From: a virus
Taxonomy: Duplodnaviria; Heunggongvirae; Uroviricota; Caudoviricetes
IMG/VR virus record: IMGVR_UViG_2724679538_000009
Reading direction: 5' to 3' (one strand)
Length of the DNA: 17,415 nucleotides
Shown here: positions 5,364 to 17,415 of the stretch, in pieces
Layout: the number at the start of each line of letters is the position of its first letter
Numbering within the stretch: the first letter of the stretch is position 1
Notes under the pieces: generated by a model
Database searches by the model: none
What the model was told of the DNA's origin: nothing
What the model saw: the letters and a program-made list of their open reading frames with translations, nothing else
Position numbers and translations under genes: made by a program

Positions 5364-7739
5364 TTGGCCAACGATATTATTACCCAGCTTCAGGCGCGTA
5401 ATGAGACGTTGACGCAGGCAATAGCCCGTTACGGCTCACTCAACGCCAGAACATTGTTAGCTCTCTCTACTCAGCAAGCGACAGTTATCAAACTAACGCA
5501 GCGGCTTGCCGATTCCGCTCTCCGCCTGGAGGAAAATAGCCGCAGCCGCGCTAATCTGATGGAGAAAACCCACACATTTGCCGGGCAATTTAGCAAAGTA
5601 TTCAATGTTGAAGCCCCCGACTGGAAGTTGCCGTATGAGTTCCAGGACAACATGGTCAATATGGCGACCAAAGGTGGGATGAATGATACAACTCGCGAGA
5701 CGCTCAGCCTTAATCTGCGCGACTGGAGCATGGATTTTAACCAGCATCAGACCACCTTACAGAACGCAGCCCAAACGCTGATCGAAGGCAATTTGTCGTC
5801 GATACAGGATCTCAACCGTTATATGCCGGAGATCGCCAAAGCTGCCACCGCCACGCGCGAAAGTGCTGAAACATGGGCGAATGCCGCGCTCGCAACCCAT
5901 GATCGACTGAATATTGCGCCAGAAAATTTCCACGTCGCGCAAAACATGATGTACGGCATTAGCAAAAGCGGTGGGCCTGCCGTTGCCGAGCAAACGCTGT
6001 GGATAGACAAATTTGCAGGTAAAACCGGCGCTCAGGGTCTGGAAGGTATGGCTGAACTGACTGCCGCCATGCAGATCGCCATGAAAAACGGAGCCAGCGC
6101 CAGTGCGGCGGCGGAGAATTTCGACCACTTTCTGCAAACCACCTTTTCGAAAAAGACCGATAACTGGTTCGCCAGCCAGGGCGTCGATCTGCAAGGCTCT
6201 CTGCTTGAACATCAGCAAAACGGTATGGGTGTTAGCGAAGCCATGACTCATATCGTACAAATGCAGCTTGAGAAGATGAATCCGGCGATCCTCGACACCT
6301 TCAAACGCACTATGCAGATTGAAGATTTATCTGCTCGCAGCAATGCGCTGCAATCGATGGTGACGCAATTTAATCTAGGCGAAATGTTCGGCGATGCGCA
6401 AACGGTGGAATTCCTGGCACCTATGCTGGCGAATATGGAGGAATATCGCCAGTTAAAAACCTCTGCCATGCAAGCCACCAGCAAGAATCTGATTGATGCC
6501 GACTTTTCTGCGCAAATGGCCTCGCCCATTGAACAGACTAAAGCGTTACAGCTGGCGTTAAATGATTTATGGCTCAGCATTGGCTTGCAATTAATGCCGC
6601 TGATTGGCGAGCTGGCACAAAGCCTTACGCCGGTTATTCGTCAGTTCAGCGCCTGGCTACGTGAGCACCCGACACTGGTGCAAAACATCGCGAAAATCGT
6701 CGGGGCGATTTGGCTGTTTAACGGTGCGCTGAATGTTTTAAAGCTGGGCGCGAACCTCATCACCTCGCCGTTTATTCGTCTGGTCGATATCTTCCTGAAA
6801 GTCAAGGCAAGTCTGGCGCTCACAGGCGGGGCAAGTAAGATGCTATCAGCGGTTAAGTCATTGGGTGGCGGCGCAAAATGGCTAATGCAACTGCTTGGTC
6901 GTGGCCTGATTAGCGCACTGAAACAGGTAGGTCAGACCGTCTTCTGGTTGGGTAGGGTTTTATTGATGAATCCCATTGGCCTGGTCATCACCGCAATTGC
7001 GGGTGCTGCTTATCTGATTTATCGCAACTGGGAGCCTATCTCCAGGTTCTTTTCGACCATCTGGCAACGTATCACCACGGCCTTTGACGGCGGTATTGCA
7101 GGGATTTGCCGGTTGATTCTCGACTGGTCGCCGCTGGCTTTGTTCTATAGCGCCTTTTCCAGTGTGATGAATTGGTTTGGTGTCGAGATGCCTGCAAGTT
7201 TTAGCGAGTTCGGCAGCAATCTTCTGGGCAGTCTGGTTGACGGCATAATGAATGCCTTCCCCGCTCTGAAAGGCATTATTGATCAGGTAAAAAACGTCAT
7301 CCCAGACTGGCTAAAAACCACGATGGGTATTAGTACAGAAGGATCGGCTACAGCTATTACAAGCACGACTAATACCGCATCCGTCTCCCCCGCGACCGTT
7401 GTTCCAGGCGTTGCCGGTGCGATTTTAACGCCTCCGGTGGGGAAACAACTCGCGCCATCCAGTAAAACGACAACGCCGCCATCGGCACCTGCGGCAAAAA
7501 ATACAGCCGCCAAACCCGCATCGGCCTCTTTACCAGGTAAATCCGTAACCAAACCGGCGACGCTACCTTCCCGTTCCTCTGGAAAAGTTCAGGTGAATTT
7601 TTCGCCACAGATTACCGTGCAGGGTAACGGACAAAACACCACTAAAGAGATTCAGAACGTGTTGACGATGAGTAAACGCGAACTGGAAAGAATGATTAAC
7701 GACGTAATGGCGCAGCAGCAGCGCCGGGGGTATGCCTGA
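5364..7739 (+). CDS. Tail tape measure protein
   Basis: 791 aa; helical N-terminal half, hydrophobic central segments, Pro/Thr/Ala/Ser-rich C-terminal region; located between chaperone and baseplate genes. The only start after the in-frame stop at 5325-5327 is TTG at 5364 (AAGAG upstream), so the start codon is uncertain. Confidence 0.8.
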   Translation: MANDIITQLQARNETLTQAIARYGSLNARTLLALSTQQATVIKLTQRLADSALRLEENSRSRANLMEKTHTFAGQFSKVFNVEAPDWKLPYEFQDNMVNMATKGGMNDTTRETLSLNLRDWSMDFNQHQTTLQNAAQTLIEGNLSSIQDLNRYMPEIAKAATATRESAETWANAALATHDRLNIAPENFHVAQNMMYGISKSGGPAVAEQTLWIDKFAGKTGAQGLEGMAELTAAMQIAMKNGASASAAAENFDHFLQTTFSKKTDNWFASQGVDLQGSLLEHQQNGMGVSEAMTHIVQMQLEKMNPAILDTFKRTMQIEDLSARSNALQSMVTQFNLGEMFGDAQTVEFLAPMLANMEEYRQLKTSAMQATSKNLIDADFSAQMASPIEQTKALQLALNDLWLSIGLQLMPLIGELAQSLTPVIRQFSAWLREHPTLVQNIAKIVGAIWLFNGALNVLKLGANLITSPFIRLVDIFLKVKASLALTGGASKMLSAVKSLGGGAKWLMQLLGRGLISALKQVGQTVFWLGRVLLMNPIGLVITAIAGAAYLIYRNWEPISRFFSTIWQRITTAFDGGIAGICRLILDWSPLALFYSAFSSVMNWFGVEMPASFSEFGSNLLGSLVDGIMNAFPALKGIIDQVKNVIPDWLKTTMGISTEGSATAITSTTNTASVSPATVVPGVAGAILTPPVGKQLAPSSKTTTPPSAPAAKNTAAKPASASLPGKSVTKPATLPSRSSGKVQVNFSPQITVQGNGQNTTKEIQNVLTMSKRELERMINDVMAQQQRRGYA

Positions 7740-12204: not shown

Positions 12205-12916
12205 ATTGCTGCCACCGCCGCCGCTTGCCAGCGATGAGCGTTTTTCGATTCTGGCAAACATCGCCGCCGAGCGTTTTGCCCAACTCGATCTGACGGCGTT
12301 GATGGTTTATCTGGTCGACCTGGTTGATGCTTCGGCATTACCAGCCCTTGCAGAACAATTTCACGTTCAGGGGCTGGAAGGTTGGTTATTTACCACCGAT
12401 GAGCGGGAGAAGCGCGAGTTAATTAAACAAGCCATTGAACTGCATAAATATAAAGGAACAATTTGGGCGGTACGGCGGGTGCTGGAAATACTTTCCTTAC
12501 CCGGAACTATTTCAGAATGGTTTGAATATGGGGGAAGGGCTTATTTTTTTAAGGTAAATATTACACTAGAGGAAAAAGGATTAAATAAAGATGAATTCAA
12601 TGCACTTATCACATTAATTCATGAATATAAAAATGTTCGTTCAAAGCTGGAAAGCATTGTTATTTGGCTTATTAATCGAAGCCCAATACCAGTTATTGGC
12701 AGCGCCATGCAAGGAGGGGAAGTCATTACAGTATTGCCTCCTGTTGCAGAAAGCCTCAGCCAGTCATCAGGAATATTTTTGGCGACGGGTTATTGTGTGG
12801 AGGAATATATCCAACTACTACCTTATCAACCCGATCGCCTTACACAATCCCAACCGATGAAGGTCGGCACAGGATACTGGAGCACCGAAATTATGTCTGT
12901 ATATCCGGAGGAATAA
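12197..12916 (+). CDS. Tail protein I-like (P2 gpI family)
   Basis: 239 aa from ATG 12197 (GGAG 6 nt upstream; the track start is TTG 12182). [17 protein letters not shown] matches the P2 gpI CHKGTIGAIRRVVEPL region as recalled; C-terminal ...SVYPEE resembles the gpI ...VITVYPG end. C-terminal half is AT-rich. Confidence 0.8.
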
Positions 12917-14496
12917 TGGCAAGTGAATTTTTTACAATATTAACTACTGCAGGCAAAGCCAAAATTGCCTCTGCATTGACGGAGCAAAAACAGATCCGTC
13001 TGCAAACTATGGTAGTTGGCGACGGTAATGGTAAATATATCGAACCGACAGAAAGTCAGACTAAAGTAGTCCATGAGGTCTGGCGTGGTCAGCTCAATAC
13101 ATTAAAAATTGCGCCAGATAATCCGGCCTGGGTTATCGCAGAAGCGATTATTCCCGAACAAGTCGGAGGCTGGTATGTACGCGAAGTTGGGTTACTGGAT
13201 ACCGACGGCACGCTGGTCGCTATTGGTAAATTTCCGGAAACCTATAAGCCACGATTACCTGCGGGGGCCAGTAAGCAAATCGTTATACGCGCGGTCATGG
13301 AAGTCACCAATGCAGACGCGGTGACGCTTTTGATCGACCCTTCAGTCGTTGTGGCAACCAGGGAATATGTCGATGACGCGTTGAAAACACATCAGCAATC
13401 ACGAAATCATCCTGATGCGACGCTAACACAAAAAGGTTTTACACTGCTGAGCAATGCGACTAATAGCGATGATGAAACCAAAGCTGCCACACCAAAAGCG
13501 GTAAAAACGGCATATGACCTGGCAAATAGCAAAGCTGCCACCAGTCATAATCATGCCTGGAATCAGATTACTGGTATCCCTGATGGTACACTGACGCAGA
13601 AAGGAGTCGTTAAACTTAACAACACAACAAATAGCACCAGTACAACGGAAGCTGCAACGCCAAGTGCTGTTAAAGCAGCGATGGACAAGGCTATTGCTGC
13701 GGCACCGTCCAGCCATACCCATGCCTGGGGGCAAATAACAGGTATCCCCGACGGTACGCTGACACAAAAAGGGGTCGTGAAACTTAATAATGCGACCAAC
13801 AGCACCAGTACGACGGAAGCTGCAACGCCGAACGCGGTTAAGGCAGCGATGGATAAGGCTATTGCTGCGGAAAGCTGTCCTGTAGGGATGCCTATACCCT
13901 GGCCATCTGATTCTGTACCTTCAGGCTACGCTCTGATGACTGGTCAGACATTTAATAAAACCTCCTATCCCAAACTGGCAATTGCATATCCATCTGGCGT
14001 TATTCCTGATATGCGCGGATGGATAATTAAAGGAAAACCATCCAGTGGGCGCGCTATATTATCTACTGAACTGGATGGAGTTAAATCACATAACCATACG
14101 GGCAGTATTTCTAGTACCAATTTAGGGACAATAACATCTACCTCTACGGACTTAGGAACAAAAACTACAGCTTCATTTAATCATGGAAGTAGAAATACAA
14201 GCACATCTGGAGAACATACACACCGAATACCAACTGATGGTGCAGAAGGTAAAGATGGACCGTCTTTATGGAACAGCCCCAATTCAGATGAGAACTACAG
14301 AGAACCTACTGAGTCTGCTGGTAGTCATTATCATAGTATTACGATTGGCGCCCATGCACATACAATCGCACTGGGAAGTCATACACATAATATTGTGTTA
14401 GGTACACATAATCACTCAATTATCATCAATAACACTGGCAATACAGAAAATACTGTTAAAAACATTGCATTCAATTATATTGTGAGGCTTGCATGA
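12916..14496 (+). CDS. Tail fibre protein (P2 gpH-like N-terminus, repeat-containing shaft, His-box C-terminal tip)
   Basis: 526 aa from ATG 12916 (GGAGG 6 nt upstream). N-terminal ~200 aa closely track P2 gpH as recalled ([41 protein letters not shown]...[14 protein letters not shown]). Contains 56-aa tandem repeats and C-terminal HxH motifs ([32 protein letters not shown]). Confidence 0.85.
13420..13870 (+). repeat. In-frame tandem direct repeats, 168-bp period (about 2.7 copies) inside the tail fibre gene
   Basis: Units begin at 13420, 13588 and 13756, each encoding TLTQKG(V/F)..[27 protein letters not shown]...[12 protein letters not shown]. Copies 2 and 3 are near-identical at DNA level. 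Confidence 0.75.
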
Positions 14497-15200
14497 ATAC
14501 TTTTACTTTTTCCGATAACGCACAAATTTTATCTGTTTTTAATTTTTCACCAGACACACAAGAATTTATTGGTGAGTCCAATGTATATATAGCACCAAAC
14601 ACTGGACTACCGAATTACTGCACATTAACACCACCACCACAAAAAATTGCAGGTTTTACTTCTATATGGTCAATTAATAAATGGGAACTTATTGAAGATC
14701 ATCGAGGCCAAACTGTTTATAACAAAGTTGATGGCAGCCAGATTATTATTAATAAATTGGGTCAATTGCCTGAAACTGTCACCATCATTTCCCCTACCAG
14801 TACTTTTGAGCGTTGGGATGGCGAAAAATGGCAGCCATCAATTGATGATGCTAAACAGGCGAAATGTGCCGAAATCAAAACATTGCGCGACTCCATCACT
14901 ACCGACTACATCATCATCAACGACAATTACTTCCACAGTGATACAAGCAGCCGCATCCAACAACTCTCACTCACAAAAATGGGAGCGGAGAAAAAAATTC
15001 CGCCAGGTTTAATGTGGAAAACTAAAAATAATGGTCTGACTGAGTTAACCAACGAAATCGCTGCCCAGTTTGAATCCGTCACAATGGATCACGATATACG
15101 CTTGTTTGCCAACGCCCAACGCCATATCGCGGCGGTGGAAGCTCTGGACGATATTCAGTCGGTACTCGACTACGATTATTCAACAGGCTGGCAACCATGA
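14493..15200 (+). CDS. Tail fibre assembly protein (lambda Tfa / P2 gpG family)
   Basis: 235 aa; ATGA overlap with the fibre stop. N-terminal region [32 protein letters not shown]...[13 protein letters not shown] parallels lambda Tfa (EFIGEGDAYIPPHTGLP...PPDIPAGF...WHLVEDHRGKTVY) as recalled. Confidence 0.8.
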
Positions 15201-15652
15201 GTAAAACTACAGTCTGGCTCGCTTGCTATAAAGGGCGAACAGAGCACCGGGTTATTGCGAGACTGGCTGACTGGCTTACACGCAAAATCACTCGCGGCAG
15301 TTATTCCCACTGTGAATTAGCCGTAGCACATGGAGAAAAGAGTTACCTTTGTTACTCCGCCTCTCTGCGCGATCGAGGCGTTCGTGGAAAGATAATGCCT
15401 TTACCGCCAGACAAGTGGGATATGCTGCCGCTCCAGGTCAGCCTTCAGGATGTAGAAGCTTTTTTCCGTAAACATGATGGCAAAAAATACGACTGGCGTG
15501 GAGCCTTAGGAATTATCACCGGCAATAAAGAACAGCGCGATCGCCTGTTTTGTAGCGAATTTTGTGCCGAATTTCTGCAATTAAAAGAAAGTTGGCGCTA
15601 TTCCCCAAACCACTTGTACGCTTTAGTTAACAGTTGGCAATATCAACCATAA
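15197..15652 (+). CDS. Putative permuted papain-fold (YiiX/YaeF C92 / LRAT-like) thiol enzyme
   Basis: 151 aa; ATGA-coupled to the tfa stop. His-containing N-terminal motif (GSYSHCELAVAHG) and C-terminal GKKYDW...RLFCSEF resemble the GxxYDF...YCSEV signature of YiiX-type permuted NlpC/P60 proteins as recalled. No transmembrane segment. Confidence 0.4.
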   Translation: MSKTTVWLACYKGRTEHRVIARLADWLTRKITRGSYSHCELAVAHGEKSYLCYSASLRDRGVRGKIMPLPPDKWDMLPLQVSLQDVEAFFRKHDGKKYDWRGALGIITGNKEQRDRLFCSEFCAEFLQLKESWRYSPNHLYALVNSWQYQP

Positions 15653-15657
15653 ACTAC

Positions 15658-15680
15658 GCCGGGCTTCAAGCCCGGCTTTA
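15658..15680 (+). terminator. Terminator-like hairpin ending the tail operon
   Basis: gccgggc-ttcaa-gcccggc stem-loop followed by ttta, 6 nt after the stop of the 151-aa gene. Confidence 0.5.
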
Positions 15681-15865: not shown

Positions 15866-16594
15866 ATGTTTATTGTCTCAGTTCTCAGACAAAGTAAGGA
15901 TTTCACTATTAAACATGCACAATGGCTTCACCAGCAGCTGGATGGGTATAATTCCATTTGCATGACGGATGCTTCAGAAATCAAAGGGGTTCAAACCACT
16001 CCATTACTGTATAATTGGCCAGGATGGTGGGCAAAATTAGAGCTATTTAATCCCGAACATCCTGTTCTCGGGAATAAAGATATACTTTATATTGATATTG
16101 ATACTGTAATCGTCGGTGATATTACACAGTTTACTAAAATGAAAAAAGTAACATTACTGAACGACTTCTCGCAGCATGGTTCCAATGCTGCTCCTGCGAC
16201 TGGAATAATGTTCATTCCTGCGGACGCCAAAAAACTTGTCTGGGAAGAGTTTATGAGATCGCCTGAAACTGAAATAAATTCAACCAGAAAGCCGCCATAT
16301 CATGGGGATCAGGGATTTATCGGCAGAGTATGTCATGACGCTGAAAGATGGCAGGATATTTTTCCAGGACAAATTATCAGTTACAAAGCGAATATAGCGA
16401 CGCCTAAAATGATAGGCTTTAATCCTGACTTACACGATGGTAAAGCAAACGGAGAATTGCCATCGGATGCAAAAATTGTATGTTTTCACGGTTCACCTCG
16501 TCCCTGGAACACAGCTCTCCACTGGGTTCCAGGTTTCAGCATAAAAAACACACTCTGCAGCAAATTTAAACAGCTCAAATATTCTCTTCGGTAA
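15866..16594 (+). CDS. GT-A fold glycosyltransferase, GT8-like (DXD and HxxGxxRPW motifs)
   Basis: 242 aa; AGGGAA Shine-Dalgarno upstream. DILYIDIDTVIVGD matches the GT8 DXD region (LgtC KVLYLDIDVLV as recalled) and VCFHGSPRPWN matches the GT8 C-terminal HxxGxxKPW motif. Markedly AT-rich relative to the tail genes; flanked by terminator hairpins. Confidence 0.5.
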   Translation: MFIVSVLRQSKDFTIKHAQWLHQQLDGYNSICMTDASEIKGVQTTPLLYNWPGWWAKLELFNPEHPVLGNKDILYIDIDTVIVGDITQFTKMKKVTLLNDFSQHGSNAAPATGIMFIPADAKKLVWEEFMRSPETEINSTRKPPYHGDQGFIGRVCHDAERWQDIFPGQIISYKANIATPKMIGFNPDLHDGKANGELPSDAKIVCFHGSPRPWNTALHWVPGFSIKNTLCSKFKQLKYSLR

Positions 16595-16614: not shown

Positions 16615-16635
16615 CGCCGGGCATCACGCCCGGCG
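16615..16635. terminator. Bidirectional terminator-like hairpin between convergent genes
   Basis: cgccgggc-atcac-gcccggcg is a perfect 8-bp stem with a 5-nt loop; A-run and T-run immediately upstream on the plus strand. The nucleotidyltransferase stop codon lies in the loop; 20 nt downstream of the glycosyltransferase stop. Confidence 0.5.
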
Positions 16636-17415
16636 TATCACTGTTTGATACAACAACCCATCCAGTTCCCTGGCATCTCCGTCCCTGCTGTCTGGTAACA
16701 CTGGTGGAATTTCCCCGTGCGCCAGTTCCGCGCGAATAAATGCATGTAACAATGGACGACGCGGACCATATTCCGCTTCTCCCGCGCGCTGTTTACGTTC
16801 CAGCAGCTCGTCTATTTCTGCGCGTAACGGCGCATCAAGTTCGGTTCCCGTCAGTAACTCAGCAAAGCGCATTGGCGGTACGCCTTTTCCCGCTTCAACC
16901 CAACGCACAGCCAGTAATGGTCGCAGCACGTAAAAGTATTTTTTCAGCCGAACTACGTCGCCCTGCAAATAACCGCGAAAGTTTTTCCGCGCCATCGAAT
17001 AATAATGCCAACGCGCACGCAGCGGAGAAAACCACTTCGGCACCATTGCCTTAAGCGGCGTTATCGTTTCTTCATCTTGTTGATAGACCACCGGAGAATC
17101 CAGCCATTCAATCAGCGTCGGATTAGCGCCTTTCAGTAATCCCAGCGCCTTGCGCCACTCCCAGCCTGAAACATCTAACTCGTCGTCAATAGGCAACTCA
17201 ATAACATCGCGCGGCGCCTCCACCCGCAGATACCATTCCAGCGGGTGAACATACAAAAATCGTACATCGTAGTCGCTGTCGGGAGAGGCAAATCCCCAAC
17301 CGCGACTCCCCGATTCGCAGGCGTACAGCACTTTCACGCCATAGCGACGTTCTATTTCTTTTAATTGCTGCGATACCCGTTCGCGCATCGCAGCACTGAC
17401 TCCATTTATTGGCAT
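16624..17415 (-). CDS. Pol-beta superfamily nucleotidyltransferase-domain protein
   Basis: 263-aa ORF whose ATG is the last three bases of the window. N-terminal ESGSRGWGFASPDSDYDV matches the GS-x(9-13)-DxD nucleotidyltransferase signature; helical C-terminal half. Higher GC than the adjacent cargo gene. Confidence 0.6.
   Translation of the reverse strand: MPINGVSAAMRERVSQQLKEIERRYGVKVLYACESGSRGWGFASPDSDYDVRFLYVHPLEWYLRVEAPRDVIELPIDDELDVSGWEWRKALGLLKGANPTLIEWLDSPVVYQQDEETITPLKAMVPKWFSPLRARWHYYSMARKNFRGYLQGDVVRLKKYFYVLRPLLAVRWVEAGKGVPPMRFAELLTGTELDAPLRAEIDELLERKQRAGEAEYGPRRPLLHAFIRAELAHGEIPPVLPDSRDGDARELDGLLYQTVIRRA

Follow-up and report, generated by a model that had tools for sequence, protein, structure and literature searches.

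The closest described relatives of the protein reported here are Escherichia coli YiiX (structure 2if6) and Bacillus cereus BcPPNE (3kw0), which belong to the YaeF/YiiX family (Pfam PF05708; MEROPS C92). The catalytic set of both proteins comprises equivalent histidine, tyrosine, and cysteine residues plus Glu64 (Xu et al. 2011, PMC3142127), and YiiX has a bound fatty acid and a hydrophobic S1 pocket (PMC3142127). YiiX is encoded by a chromosomal gene and carries an N-terminal signal peptide. In contrast, the protein of interest here has no signal peptide and is encoded within a phage tail-fiber module, at positions 15197–15652 of IMG/VR virus record IMGVR_UViG_2724679538_000009. This 17,415-nucleotide (nt) stretch of Caudoviricetes DNA (hereafter, the window), which corresponds to IMG/VR contig UViG_2778261668_000003, spans the tail region of a prophage, and its + strand genes encode sheath, tube, tape-measure, baseplate, fiber, and chaperone proteins. 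We find that the enzyme is homologous to the YaeF/YiiX C92 proteins, yet belongs to a separate clade outside of Pfam.

The relationship emerges from searches that draw on the whole family. Used alone, the window protein matched no Pfam family at an expectation value (E) of 1 or lower and no NCBIfam model, and a phmmer search of the PDB returned only a chance match to a helicase (E 0.63). Megablast of the region holding the enzyme gene against the phage collection gave no match. When the family profile was run against all PDB sequences with hmmsearch, it retrieved only 3kw0 (2.6e-4) and 2if6, the YiiX entry (0.014). Aligned by hhalign to a YiiX family profile built for this analysis, it reached a probability of 95.7% and an E of 1e-8 over 91 columns, with His38, Tyr98, and Cys119 of the window protein paired with His49, Tyr115, and Cys128 of YiiX. 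Homology to genuine YaeF/YiiX members is detectable, then, by both profile–profile and profile–PDB comparisons. A Foldseek search of the PDB yielded 3kw0 as the only entry whose chains had a probability of 1.00 (best E 1.5e-3), and the structural neighbors among viral proteins include one annotated as YaeF/YiiX C92.

The protein has a papain-like alpha/beta core with a circular permutation, so the histidine sits on a strand and precedes the cysteine, which lies at the N-terminus of a helix. It very probably adopts the permuted NlpC/P60 (YiiX-like) fold, as an initial annotation made from the sequence without database searches had proposed on the basis of this residue order. The grounds that annotation gave for abandoning its proposal were a lack of significant matches to permuted papain-fold families and a fold without a Cys-His pair; both the matches and the pair were found.

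The resemblance stops short of membership in the Pfam family. The window protein is shorter than YiiX and BcPPNE (151 versus 177–214 amino acids), shares ~19%–20% identity with them, and is not detected by PF05708. This model recognizes one of 45 close relatives (0.073) and two of 138 diverse relatives (best 1.6e-4), and a precomputed Pfam domain is present in none of the 82 database homologs. The phage proteins form a clade separate from C92: Their acidic residues are laid out differently, they lack a signal for export, and their context in phage tail-fiber modules is fixed.

Other branches of the superfamily fit less well. Structural similarity to LRAT/PLAAT, TseH, Tox-Act1, LnsA, MARTX RID, and picornavirus 2A (H-box/NC) proteins is much weaker than that to YiiX, and the phage protein differs from LRAT/PLAAT, TseH, Tox-Act1, and similar proteins in having no NCEHF motif around the cysteine, membrane anchor, secretion context, or immunity gene. 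It also departs from the canonical NlpC/P60 peptidoglycan hydrolases, in which the cysteine precedes the histidine and which are usually exported. The core of the earlier suggestion, a YiiX/C92-like permuted papain-fold protein with His before Cys, is supported, with the qualifications that the Pfam C92 model is silent, the Glu64 position is not canonical, and the defining LRAT features are missing.

The three motifs highlighted by the initial annotation are present in the 151-amino-acid protein as S37-H38-C39-E40-L41, G95-K96-K97-Y98-D99-W100, and F118-C119-S120-E121-F122. Conservation was counted across 138 diverse representatives at 50% identity. His38, Trp74, Tyr98, and Cys119 are invariant in this set, and Ser37, Glu40, Ser56, Asp59, Gly61, Val62, Arg63, Ser120, and Glu121 are conserved in at least 90% of its members. 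By analogy with characterized members of the fold, the protein is likely to be a catalytically active thiol enzyme.

The acidic residue that completes the YiiX and BcPPNE active sites is not where it would be expected. No aspartate or glutamate occupies positions 54–56 in any of the 138 relatives. Glu64 aligns to Ser54 both by hhalign and when Alteromonas phage V22 gp28 is compared with the family profile, and it aligns to position 55, which is alanine in the window protein and serine in most relatives, when HMMER is used against 3kw0. In the YiiX profile, a glycine two residues after the histidine (His+2) and Glu64 are both invariant, whereas the phage family shows the reverse, with H-x-E and a serine within 54–56. 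This either/or pattern, H-x-G with Glu64 versus H-x-E with serine, suggests that the acidic partner of the histidine has moved. Judging from the alignments, Glu40 probably takes over the role of the missing Glu64. The H-x-E/Ser signature thereby offers a testable case of an active-site residue relocating within a well-known fold.

The gp28 protein of V22, annotated as a “permuted papain-like amidase,” is informative in this regard. It matches the family profile at E 1.1e-17 and shares the S-H-C, K-S-Y-D-W, and W-F-C-x-E motifs with the family, but differs in having glycine at His+2 (S-H-C-G) and the glutamate of I-E-A-T where the family has serine. By its sequence, V22 gp28 is a bridging member between the YiiX pattern and the phage family. 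The gene order in V22, a lytic marine myovirus, is also alike: The fiber gene (gp26) is followed by a DUF4376 chaperone gene (gp27) and then by gp28, whose start abuts the chaperone stop. The authors of the V22 work list gp28 only as a “protein catabolism” gene. Our full-text literature search located no study of the enzyme family, and this unexamined annotation was its only trace.

In the window, the ATG of the enzyme gene shares bases with the TGA stop of the upstream ORF (ATGA), as the initial annotation had noted for the gene it called tfa. That upstream ORF matches Pfam DUF4376 at 3.9e-13 (residues 119–226) and Caudo_TAP at 5.7e-05 (residues 71–127), as well as PHROG 1807, 105, and 2837, which are tail-fiber or tail-fiber-assembly families. 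It has the features of a Mu-type tail-fiber assembly protein, including its position directly 3′ of the fiber gene. The domain roles of such proteins have been summarized previously (PMC7882524).

This arrangement is widespread. In a synteny set of 82 loci, which form 29 clusters at 80% identity, the enzyme gene in 25 of the 29 clusters starts within or directly next to the end of a same-strand gene upstream, mostly through ATGA and otherwise with spacings from −13 to +3 nt. The upstream ORFs in these clusters encode ~155–275 amino acids. Among the 29 representatives, the upstream ORF is a DUF4376 protein in 18 and belongs to PHROG 2837 (“tail protein”) in 23, with another tail-fiber-assembly PHROG in most of the others. 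The order fiber–chaperone–enzyme is annotated in phages or prophages named Haemophilus SuMu, Pasteurella Pm86, Moraxella Mcat25, Acidovorax AP1, and Pseudomonas pAN, in addition to V22. A narrow-alignment genome scan (eight loci) recovered it in Variovorax, Cardiobacterium, Sulfitobacter, Roseovarius, and Halopseudomonas genomes, and it is also found in three metagenomic phages, of which one is P2-like, one is lambdoid with GpJ, and one has the genes adjoining a GH108 endolysin. At the most distant loci, a small protein of no known family occupies the chaperone position after the fiber gene. The enzyme had been described as “not a standard tail component.” This is fair with respect to textbook phages, among which it is unusual, but within a very large phage family its position is the norm.

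Genes on the other side of the enzyme gene are far less constant. DNA methylase (eight cases) and sheath (four cases) genes are found downstream, and elsewhere glycosyltransferase, endolysin, or holin genes, usually after a gap of 100–500 nt. In related enterobacterial prophages, the identity of the enzyme follows that of the C-terminal 110 amino acids of the chaperone, whereas the chaperone N-terminus is exchanged. For example, at one such locus (L006) the enzyme is 95% and the chaperone C-terminus 86% identical, and the N-terminus cannot be aligned. Among complete E. coli genomes, 203 carry the enzyme gene and 210 carry the chaperone C-terminus, and two divergent cases that were checked also have a family member.

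Two observations on the makeup of these modules can be recorded separately. The region from ~14000 to 14800, which covers the fiber C-terminus and the chaperone N-terminus, has a GC content of 0.33–0.41 versus 0.45–0.56 in the other tail genes, and the chaperone N-termini are nonhomologous among prophages whose chaperone C-termini and enzymes are 86%–95% identical. The drop in GC content and the N-terminal nonhomology together point to exchange of a host-range cassette with a breakpoint inside the chaperone gene. In a P2-like metagenomic phage (L088), the family member at 5447–5866 has a 4-nt overlap with a 139-amino-acid ORF that weakly resembles tail-fiber C-termini. Because this ORF precedes the sheath gene there, the enzyme gene can sit inside a late operon.

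The enzyme gene of the window is under strong purifying selection, with a ratio of nonsynonymous to synonymous substitution rates (dN/dS) of 0.03–0.05 against relatives at a dS of ~0.8. This ratio, the 82 homologs returned by one database search, and the ~4500 clusters described below establish that 15197–15652 is a real gene rather than a chance ORF. Its GC content of 0.48–0.49 is like that of the tail genes, whereas an adjoining glycosyltransferase insert has 0.36–0.40. A promoter scan found no promoter-like site upstream of the enzyme gene. Given the coupling to the chaperone gene, the lack of a promoter-like site of its own, and the backbone GC content, the enzyme is presumably made late, together with the fiber and the chaperone. 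The next gene on the + strand begins 213 nt further on and differs in base composition, which makes the enzyme ORF the final gene of the tail-fiber unit in the window, in line with its earlier description as the last gene of the tail operon.

No signal peptide or membrane segment was recognized in the window protein, which is hydrophilic (grand average of hydropathy −0.56) and basic (isoelectric point, pI, 9.4). These properties indicate that the enzyme is cytoplasmic unless it is packaged in virions. The N-terminal W-L-A-C sequence was considered as a possible lipoprotein signal, but this was ruled out because Cys10 is unconserved and no hydrophobic segment like that of a signal peptide is present.

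A library-wide hidden Markov model (HMM) search returned ~4500 representative clusters (50% identity) at E values of 1e-3 or lower, including 1974 at 1e-10. Nearly all of the best 150 of these ~4500 matches are single-domain proteins of ~135–190 amino acids. Relatives are located on at least 545 viral-contig stretches in an IMG/VR scan, and the hosts, among those seen, are Proteobacteria throughout. The family occurs in P2-like, Mu-like, and lambdoid phages, mostly in temperate phages or prophages. Records label it “hypothetical” or “enoyl-CoA hydratase,” and the latter misnaming appears in PHROG 1128, in the GenBank records of SuMu, Pm86, and RP12, and in several Pasteurellaceae and Enterobacter genomes. 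The ~4500 clusters can be reannotated as permuted NlpC/P60 thiol enzymes that form a clade of their own.

Several longer relatives were also noted. One metagenomic protein (P0199) is extended at its C-terminus by a lipobox-like L-A-L-A-G-C and, after it, a spanin-like tail rich in proline, and another (P0211) has a C-terminal HEHVH (HExxH-like) motif. These fusions may be real, or gene calling may have joined each ORF to the next gene. None of the longer relatives matches the chaperone profile as a fusion would, and the N-terminal extensions of P0119, P0129, and P0219 are uninformative.

What the enzyme does can be approached through superfamily precedent, from which its chemistry is inferred. 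The characterized permuted NlpC/P60 enzymes, including PLAAT/LRAT, LnsA, Tox-Act1, and TseH, mostly act on fatty-acyl linkages (PMC3142127, PMC7387801, PMC12994826). In the window protein, Cys119 at the start of its helix would be activated by His38, with Glu40 as the partner of the histidine in place of YiiX Glu64, and would attack an acyl linkage (probably fatty-acyl, and either an ester or an amide), giving a thioester intermediate. Support for the oxyanion would come from Tyr98. The intermediate could then be resolved by water, as in a hydrolase, or by an acceptor, as in an acyltransferase. By the same analogy, the chances that the substrate is a fatty-acyl group or a lipid are about even.

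The consistent position of the gene leads us to view it as an accessory of the tail-fiber module rather than as a free-standing moron. The enzyme and the C-terminal DUF4376 domain of the chaperone may form a two-gene block that moves among P2-like, Mu-like, lambdoid, and other Proteobacteria phages. Any target of the enzyme is likely to be generic because the enzyme does not covary with the receptor-specific parts of the fiber and chaperone; such an acylated target could be the fiber–chaperone complex or a host-envelope lipid or lipoprotein. We hold the account as a whole, in which a late acyl-thioester hydrolase or transferase serves as an accessory to the fiber module, to be somewhat better than an even bet. 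The narrower claim of a functional link to the fiber or its chaperone is more tentative and falls a little short of that. Published work on V22 established that fiber gp26 is binding-competent when coexpressed with chaperone gp27 alone. Since gp26 needs only gp27, the enzyme is probably not required for folding a binding-competent fiber.

Papain-like thiol-enzyme domains are also encoded in other phage tail modules, as illustrated by the lambda gpK-type tail proteins. In that case, the NlpC/P60 domain is canonical (Cys before His), is joined to an MPN domain, and is part of the tail tip rather than of a fiber–chaperone pair.

Multiple observations weigh against an accessory role in the fiber module. 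To our knowledge, the enzyme gene is missing from Mu and P2, two phages whose chaperones are broadly of the same type, which implies that the enzyme is dispensable for the fiber system. Late operons of phages often have overlapping start and stop codons, making coupling alone weak evidence for partnership, and coinheritance with the chaperone C-terminus could merely mirror the positions of recombination breakpoints. In Ralstonia jumbo phages, the homolog is a solitary gene on a strand of its own, distant from the fiber gene. Two weak negatives come from virion analyses: The homolog is absent from the phiRP31 list of 32 virion proteins, and it goes unmentioned in the SuMu proteomic paper. Regarding the proposed active site, the two alignments that replace Glu64 with serine disagree by one residue (position 54 versus 55).

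If the enzyme does modify the fiber, the chaperone, or an envelope lipid, adsorption biology would gain a new layer. Its near-obligate position after the chaperone gene across unrelated tail types suggests that host-recognition modules come with an enzymatic step that has gone unstudied, and fiber modules are the parts that are engineered for host-range retargeting and for pyocin-like antibacterials. Should it instead be a generic accessory hydrolase, the gain would mainly be a corrected annotation. We also considered a specific two-component system, in which DUF4376 would recruit a thiol acyl-enzyme with a Cys-His-Glu active site, its acid at His+2, to the nascent fiber tip. There it would add or remove a fatty-acyl group on the fiber or chaperone, or remodel outer-membrane lipid at the adsorption site. 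This proposal is improbable in such detail, but if true would represent lipid modification of a phage receptor-binding organelle.

We rank an accessory function for the fiber–chaperone pair first, followed by an envelope or lipid enzyme, then a cargo or exclusion gene, and then a fiber-borne effector. The second of these, which we consider unlikely, holds that the protein is unrelated to the fiber and acts late on the host envelope as a cytoplasmic phospholipase or deacylase that weakens or remodels membranes. The benefit could be help with lysis, or altered lipids or lipoproteins that spare progeny from loss on debris and infected cells. The fatty-acyl precedents and the fatty acid bound in YiiX are compatible with such a function, as is the basic pI, but the protein has neither a signal peptide nor a membrane segment. 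Lysis genes come next in several phages, namely AP1 (holin and lysozyme), pAN, and the loci with GH19 or GH108 endolysins, and one gene call joins a family member to a spanin-like tail with a lipobox. However, such genes lie downstream in a minority of loci, methylase and sheath genes are commoner, and the endolysin-like ORF of the window is far upstream (1074–1778). Receptor-blocking genes such as cor and llp adjoin receptor-binding genes, which gives this alternative a precedent for its location; a receptor-specific blocker should covary with the receptor-specific part of the module, and the enzyme does not. The chaperone, moreover, is the only constant neighbor.

Improbable as well is the possibility that the gene is moron-type cargo, such as a lysogenic-conversion, exclusion, defense, or toxin gene, lodged at an insertion hotspot behind the tail-fiber genes. 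The end of the fiber module is a known cargo hotspot, a low-GC glycosyltransferase-like gene has been inserted right after the enzyme gene, and relatives reside mostly in temperate phages and prophages. Nevertheless, the enzyme gene itself has backbone-like GC content, lacks its own promoter-like site, and overlaps a late gene through ATGA, and it is present in the lytic phage V22 and in jumbo phages. It has no conserved downstream partner such as an immunity gene, and neither the enzyme nor its three neighbors matched a PADLOC-DB defense model at E values of 0.1 or lower. A Haemophilus parasuis association study counts the gene as one of the accessory genes associated with clinical isolates, but the signal came along with other SuMu prophage genes. 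This association was set aside as a functional clue since it reflects carriage of a SuMu-like prophage.

Slightly less probable still is a virion-borne enzyme that is held on the fiber tip by the chaperone, which is fiber-bound in Mu, and that acts on the outer membrane at adsorption. TseH-type effectors that ride the phage-tail-like type VI secretion system (T6SS) provide an analogy. The phiRP31 homolog, however, went undetected among virion proteins down to 12.8 kDa, the silence of the SuMu proteomic paper points the same way, the V22 chaperone does not stay on the fiber, and no fiber-binding domain is evident in a single-domain protein of 151 amino acids. Finally, a metabolic enzyme resembling enoyl-CoA hydratase or carnitine racemase is a negligible prospect, being suggested only by inherited names (PHROG 1128, SuMu_51, Pm86 ORF70, RP12 ORF176, and several NCBI entries) for proteins that have neither a match to the crotonase family model nor its fold.

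Table 1. Coordinates of the enzyme gene, its predicted active-site codons, and adjacent features in the window
Feature	Position	Strand	Description
YiiX-like enzyme gene	15197..15652	+	ATG start; 151 amino acids, 17.7 kDa, pI 9.4; soluble; very probable permuted NlpC/P60 fold
ATGA overlap of enzyme start and chaperone stop	15197..15200	+	Sequence ccATGAgt; TGA stop of ORF 14493..15200
Tail-fiber assembly (chaperone) gene, Mu-type	14493..15200	+	235 amino acids; variable N-terminal part, conserved C-terminal DUF4376 domain
Tail fiber gene	12793..14496	+	Pfam Phage_tail_fib 6.1e-59, Phage_fiber_2, Collar; PHROG 295 tail fiber
His38 codon, predicted catalytic His	15308..15310	+	138/138 relatives; aligns to YiiX/BcPPNE His49; begins beta-strand 38–45, motif Y-S-H-C-E
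Glu40 codon (His+2), candidate third residue	15314..15316	+	Glu in 136/138 relatives
Tyr98 codon, conserved NlpC/P60 tyrosine	15488..15490	+	138/138 relatives; motif K-Y-D; aligns to YiiX GKPYDF, Tyr115
Cys119 codon, predicted nucleophile	15551..15553	+	138/138 relatives; aligns to YiiX Cys128, BcPPNE Cys154; N-terminus of helix 119–126, motif F-C-S-E
GC-rich hairpin CGCCGGGC-ttcaa-GCCCGGC	15657..15676		Five bases past enzyme stop; 8-bp stem

Some features of the surrounding window deserve brief mention. The listed fiber ORF (Table 1) has a TTG start and shares ~120 nt with the tail protein I gene before it, and residue 42 is the first of its Phage_tail_fib domain. A downstream codon near 12916 is probably where the fiber gene truly starts. 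Far from the fiber module, ORF 1074–1778 matches only the transglycosylase/endolysin-like part of large PHROG families (PHROG 669, 2e-61) and may be a phage lysis enzyme or a tail-associated lysin.

The initial annotation had placed a terminator after the enzyme gene. A hairpin is indeed located there, with a folding energy of −16.7 kcal/mol (z = −3.5) that none of 200 shuffled sequences equaled. The strict terminator scan flagged it on the − strand only and not on the + strand, and its U-tract is short (UUUAAUC). In E. coli relatives, an identical hairpin separates the enzyme gene from a convergent gene. A terminator, possibly bidirectional, is plausible but not proven.

The same 20-nt hairpin (CGCCGGGC-loop-GCCCGGC) occurs twice in the window, at 15657–15676 and 16615–16634. 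The copies are 958 nt apart and 90% identical, and they bracket ORF 15866–16594, which is glycosyltransferase-like (PHROG 1962, 2.9e-98) and has the low GC content of 0.36–0.40 given above. A related prophage of E. coli LWY24 has one hairpin and lacks the glycosyltransferase-like gene. The arrangement resembles the insertion, at the terminator hairpin, of a ~960-nt cargo cassette carrying the glycosyltransferase-like gene.

Beyond the second hairpin copy, and overlapping it with its 3′ end, lies a convergent gene (16624–17415, − strand) for an RlaP-type nucleotidyltransferase (Pfam PF10127, 7.6e-97). In E. coli, a slipin-family gene comes after the gene for this RlaP-type nucleotidyltransferase, with yjbD and rluF next. 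Because this is the E. coli gene order beyond the nucleotidyltransferase gene, the end of the prophage is probably located between 15652 and 16624.

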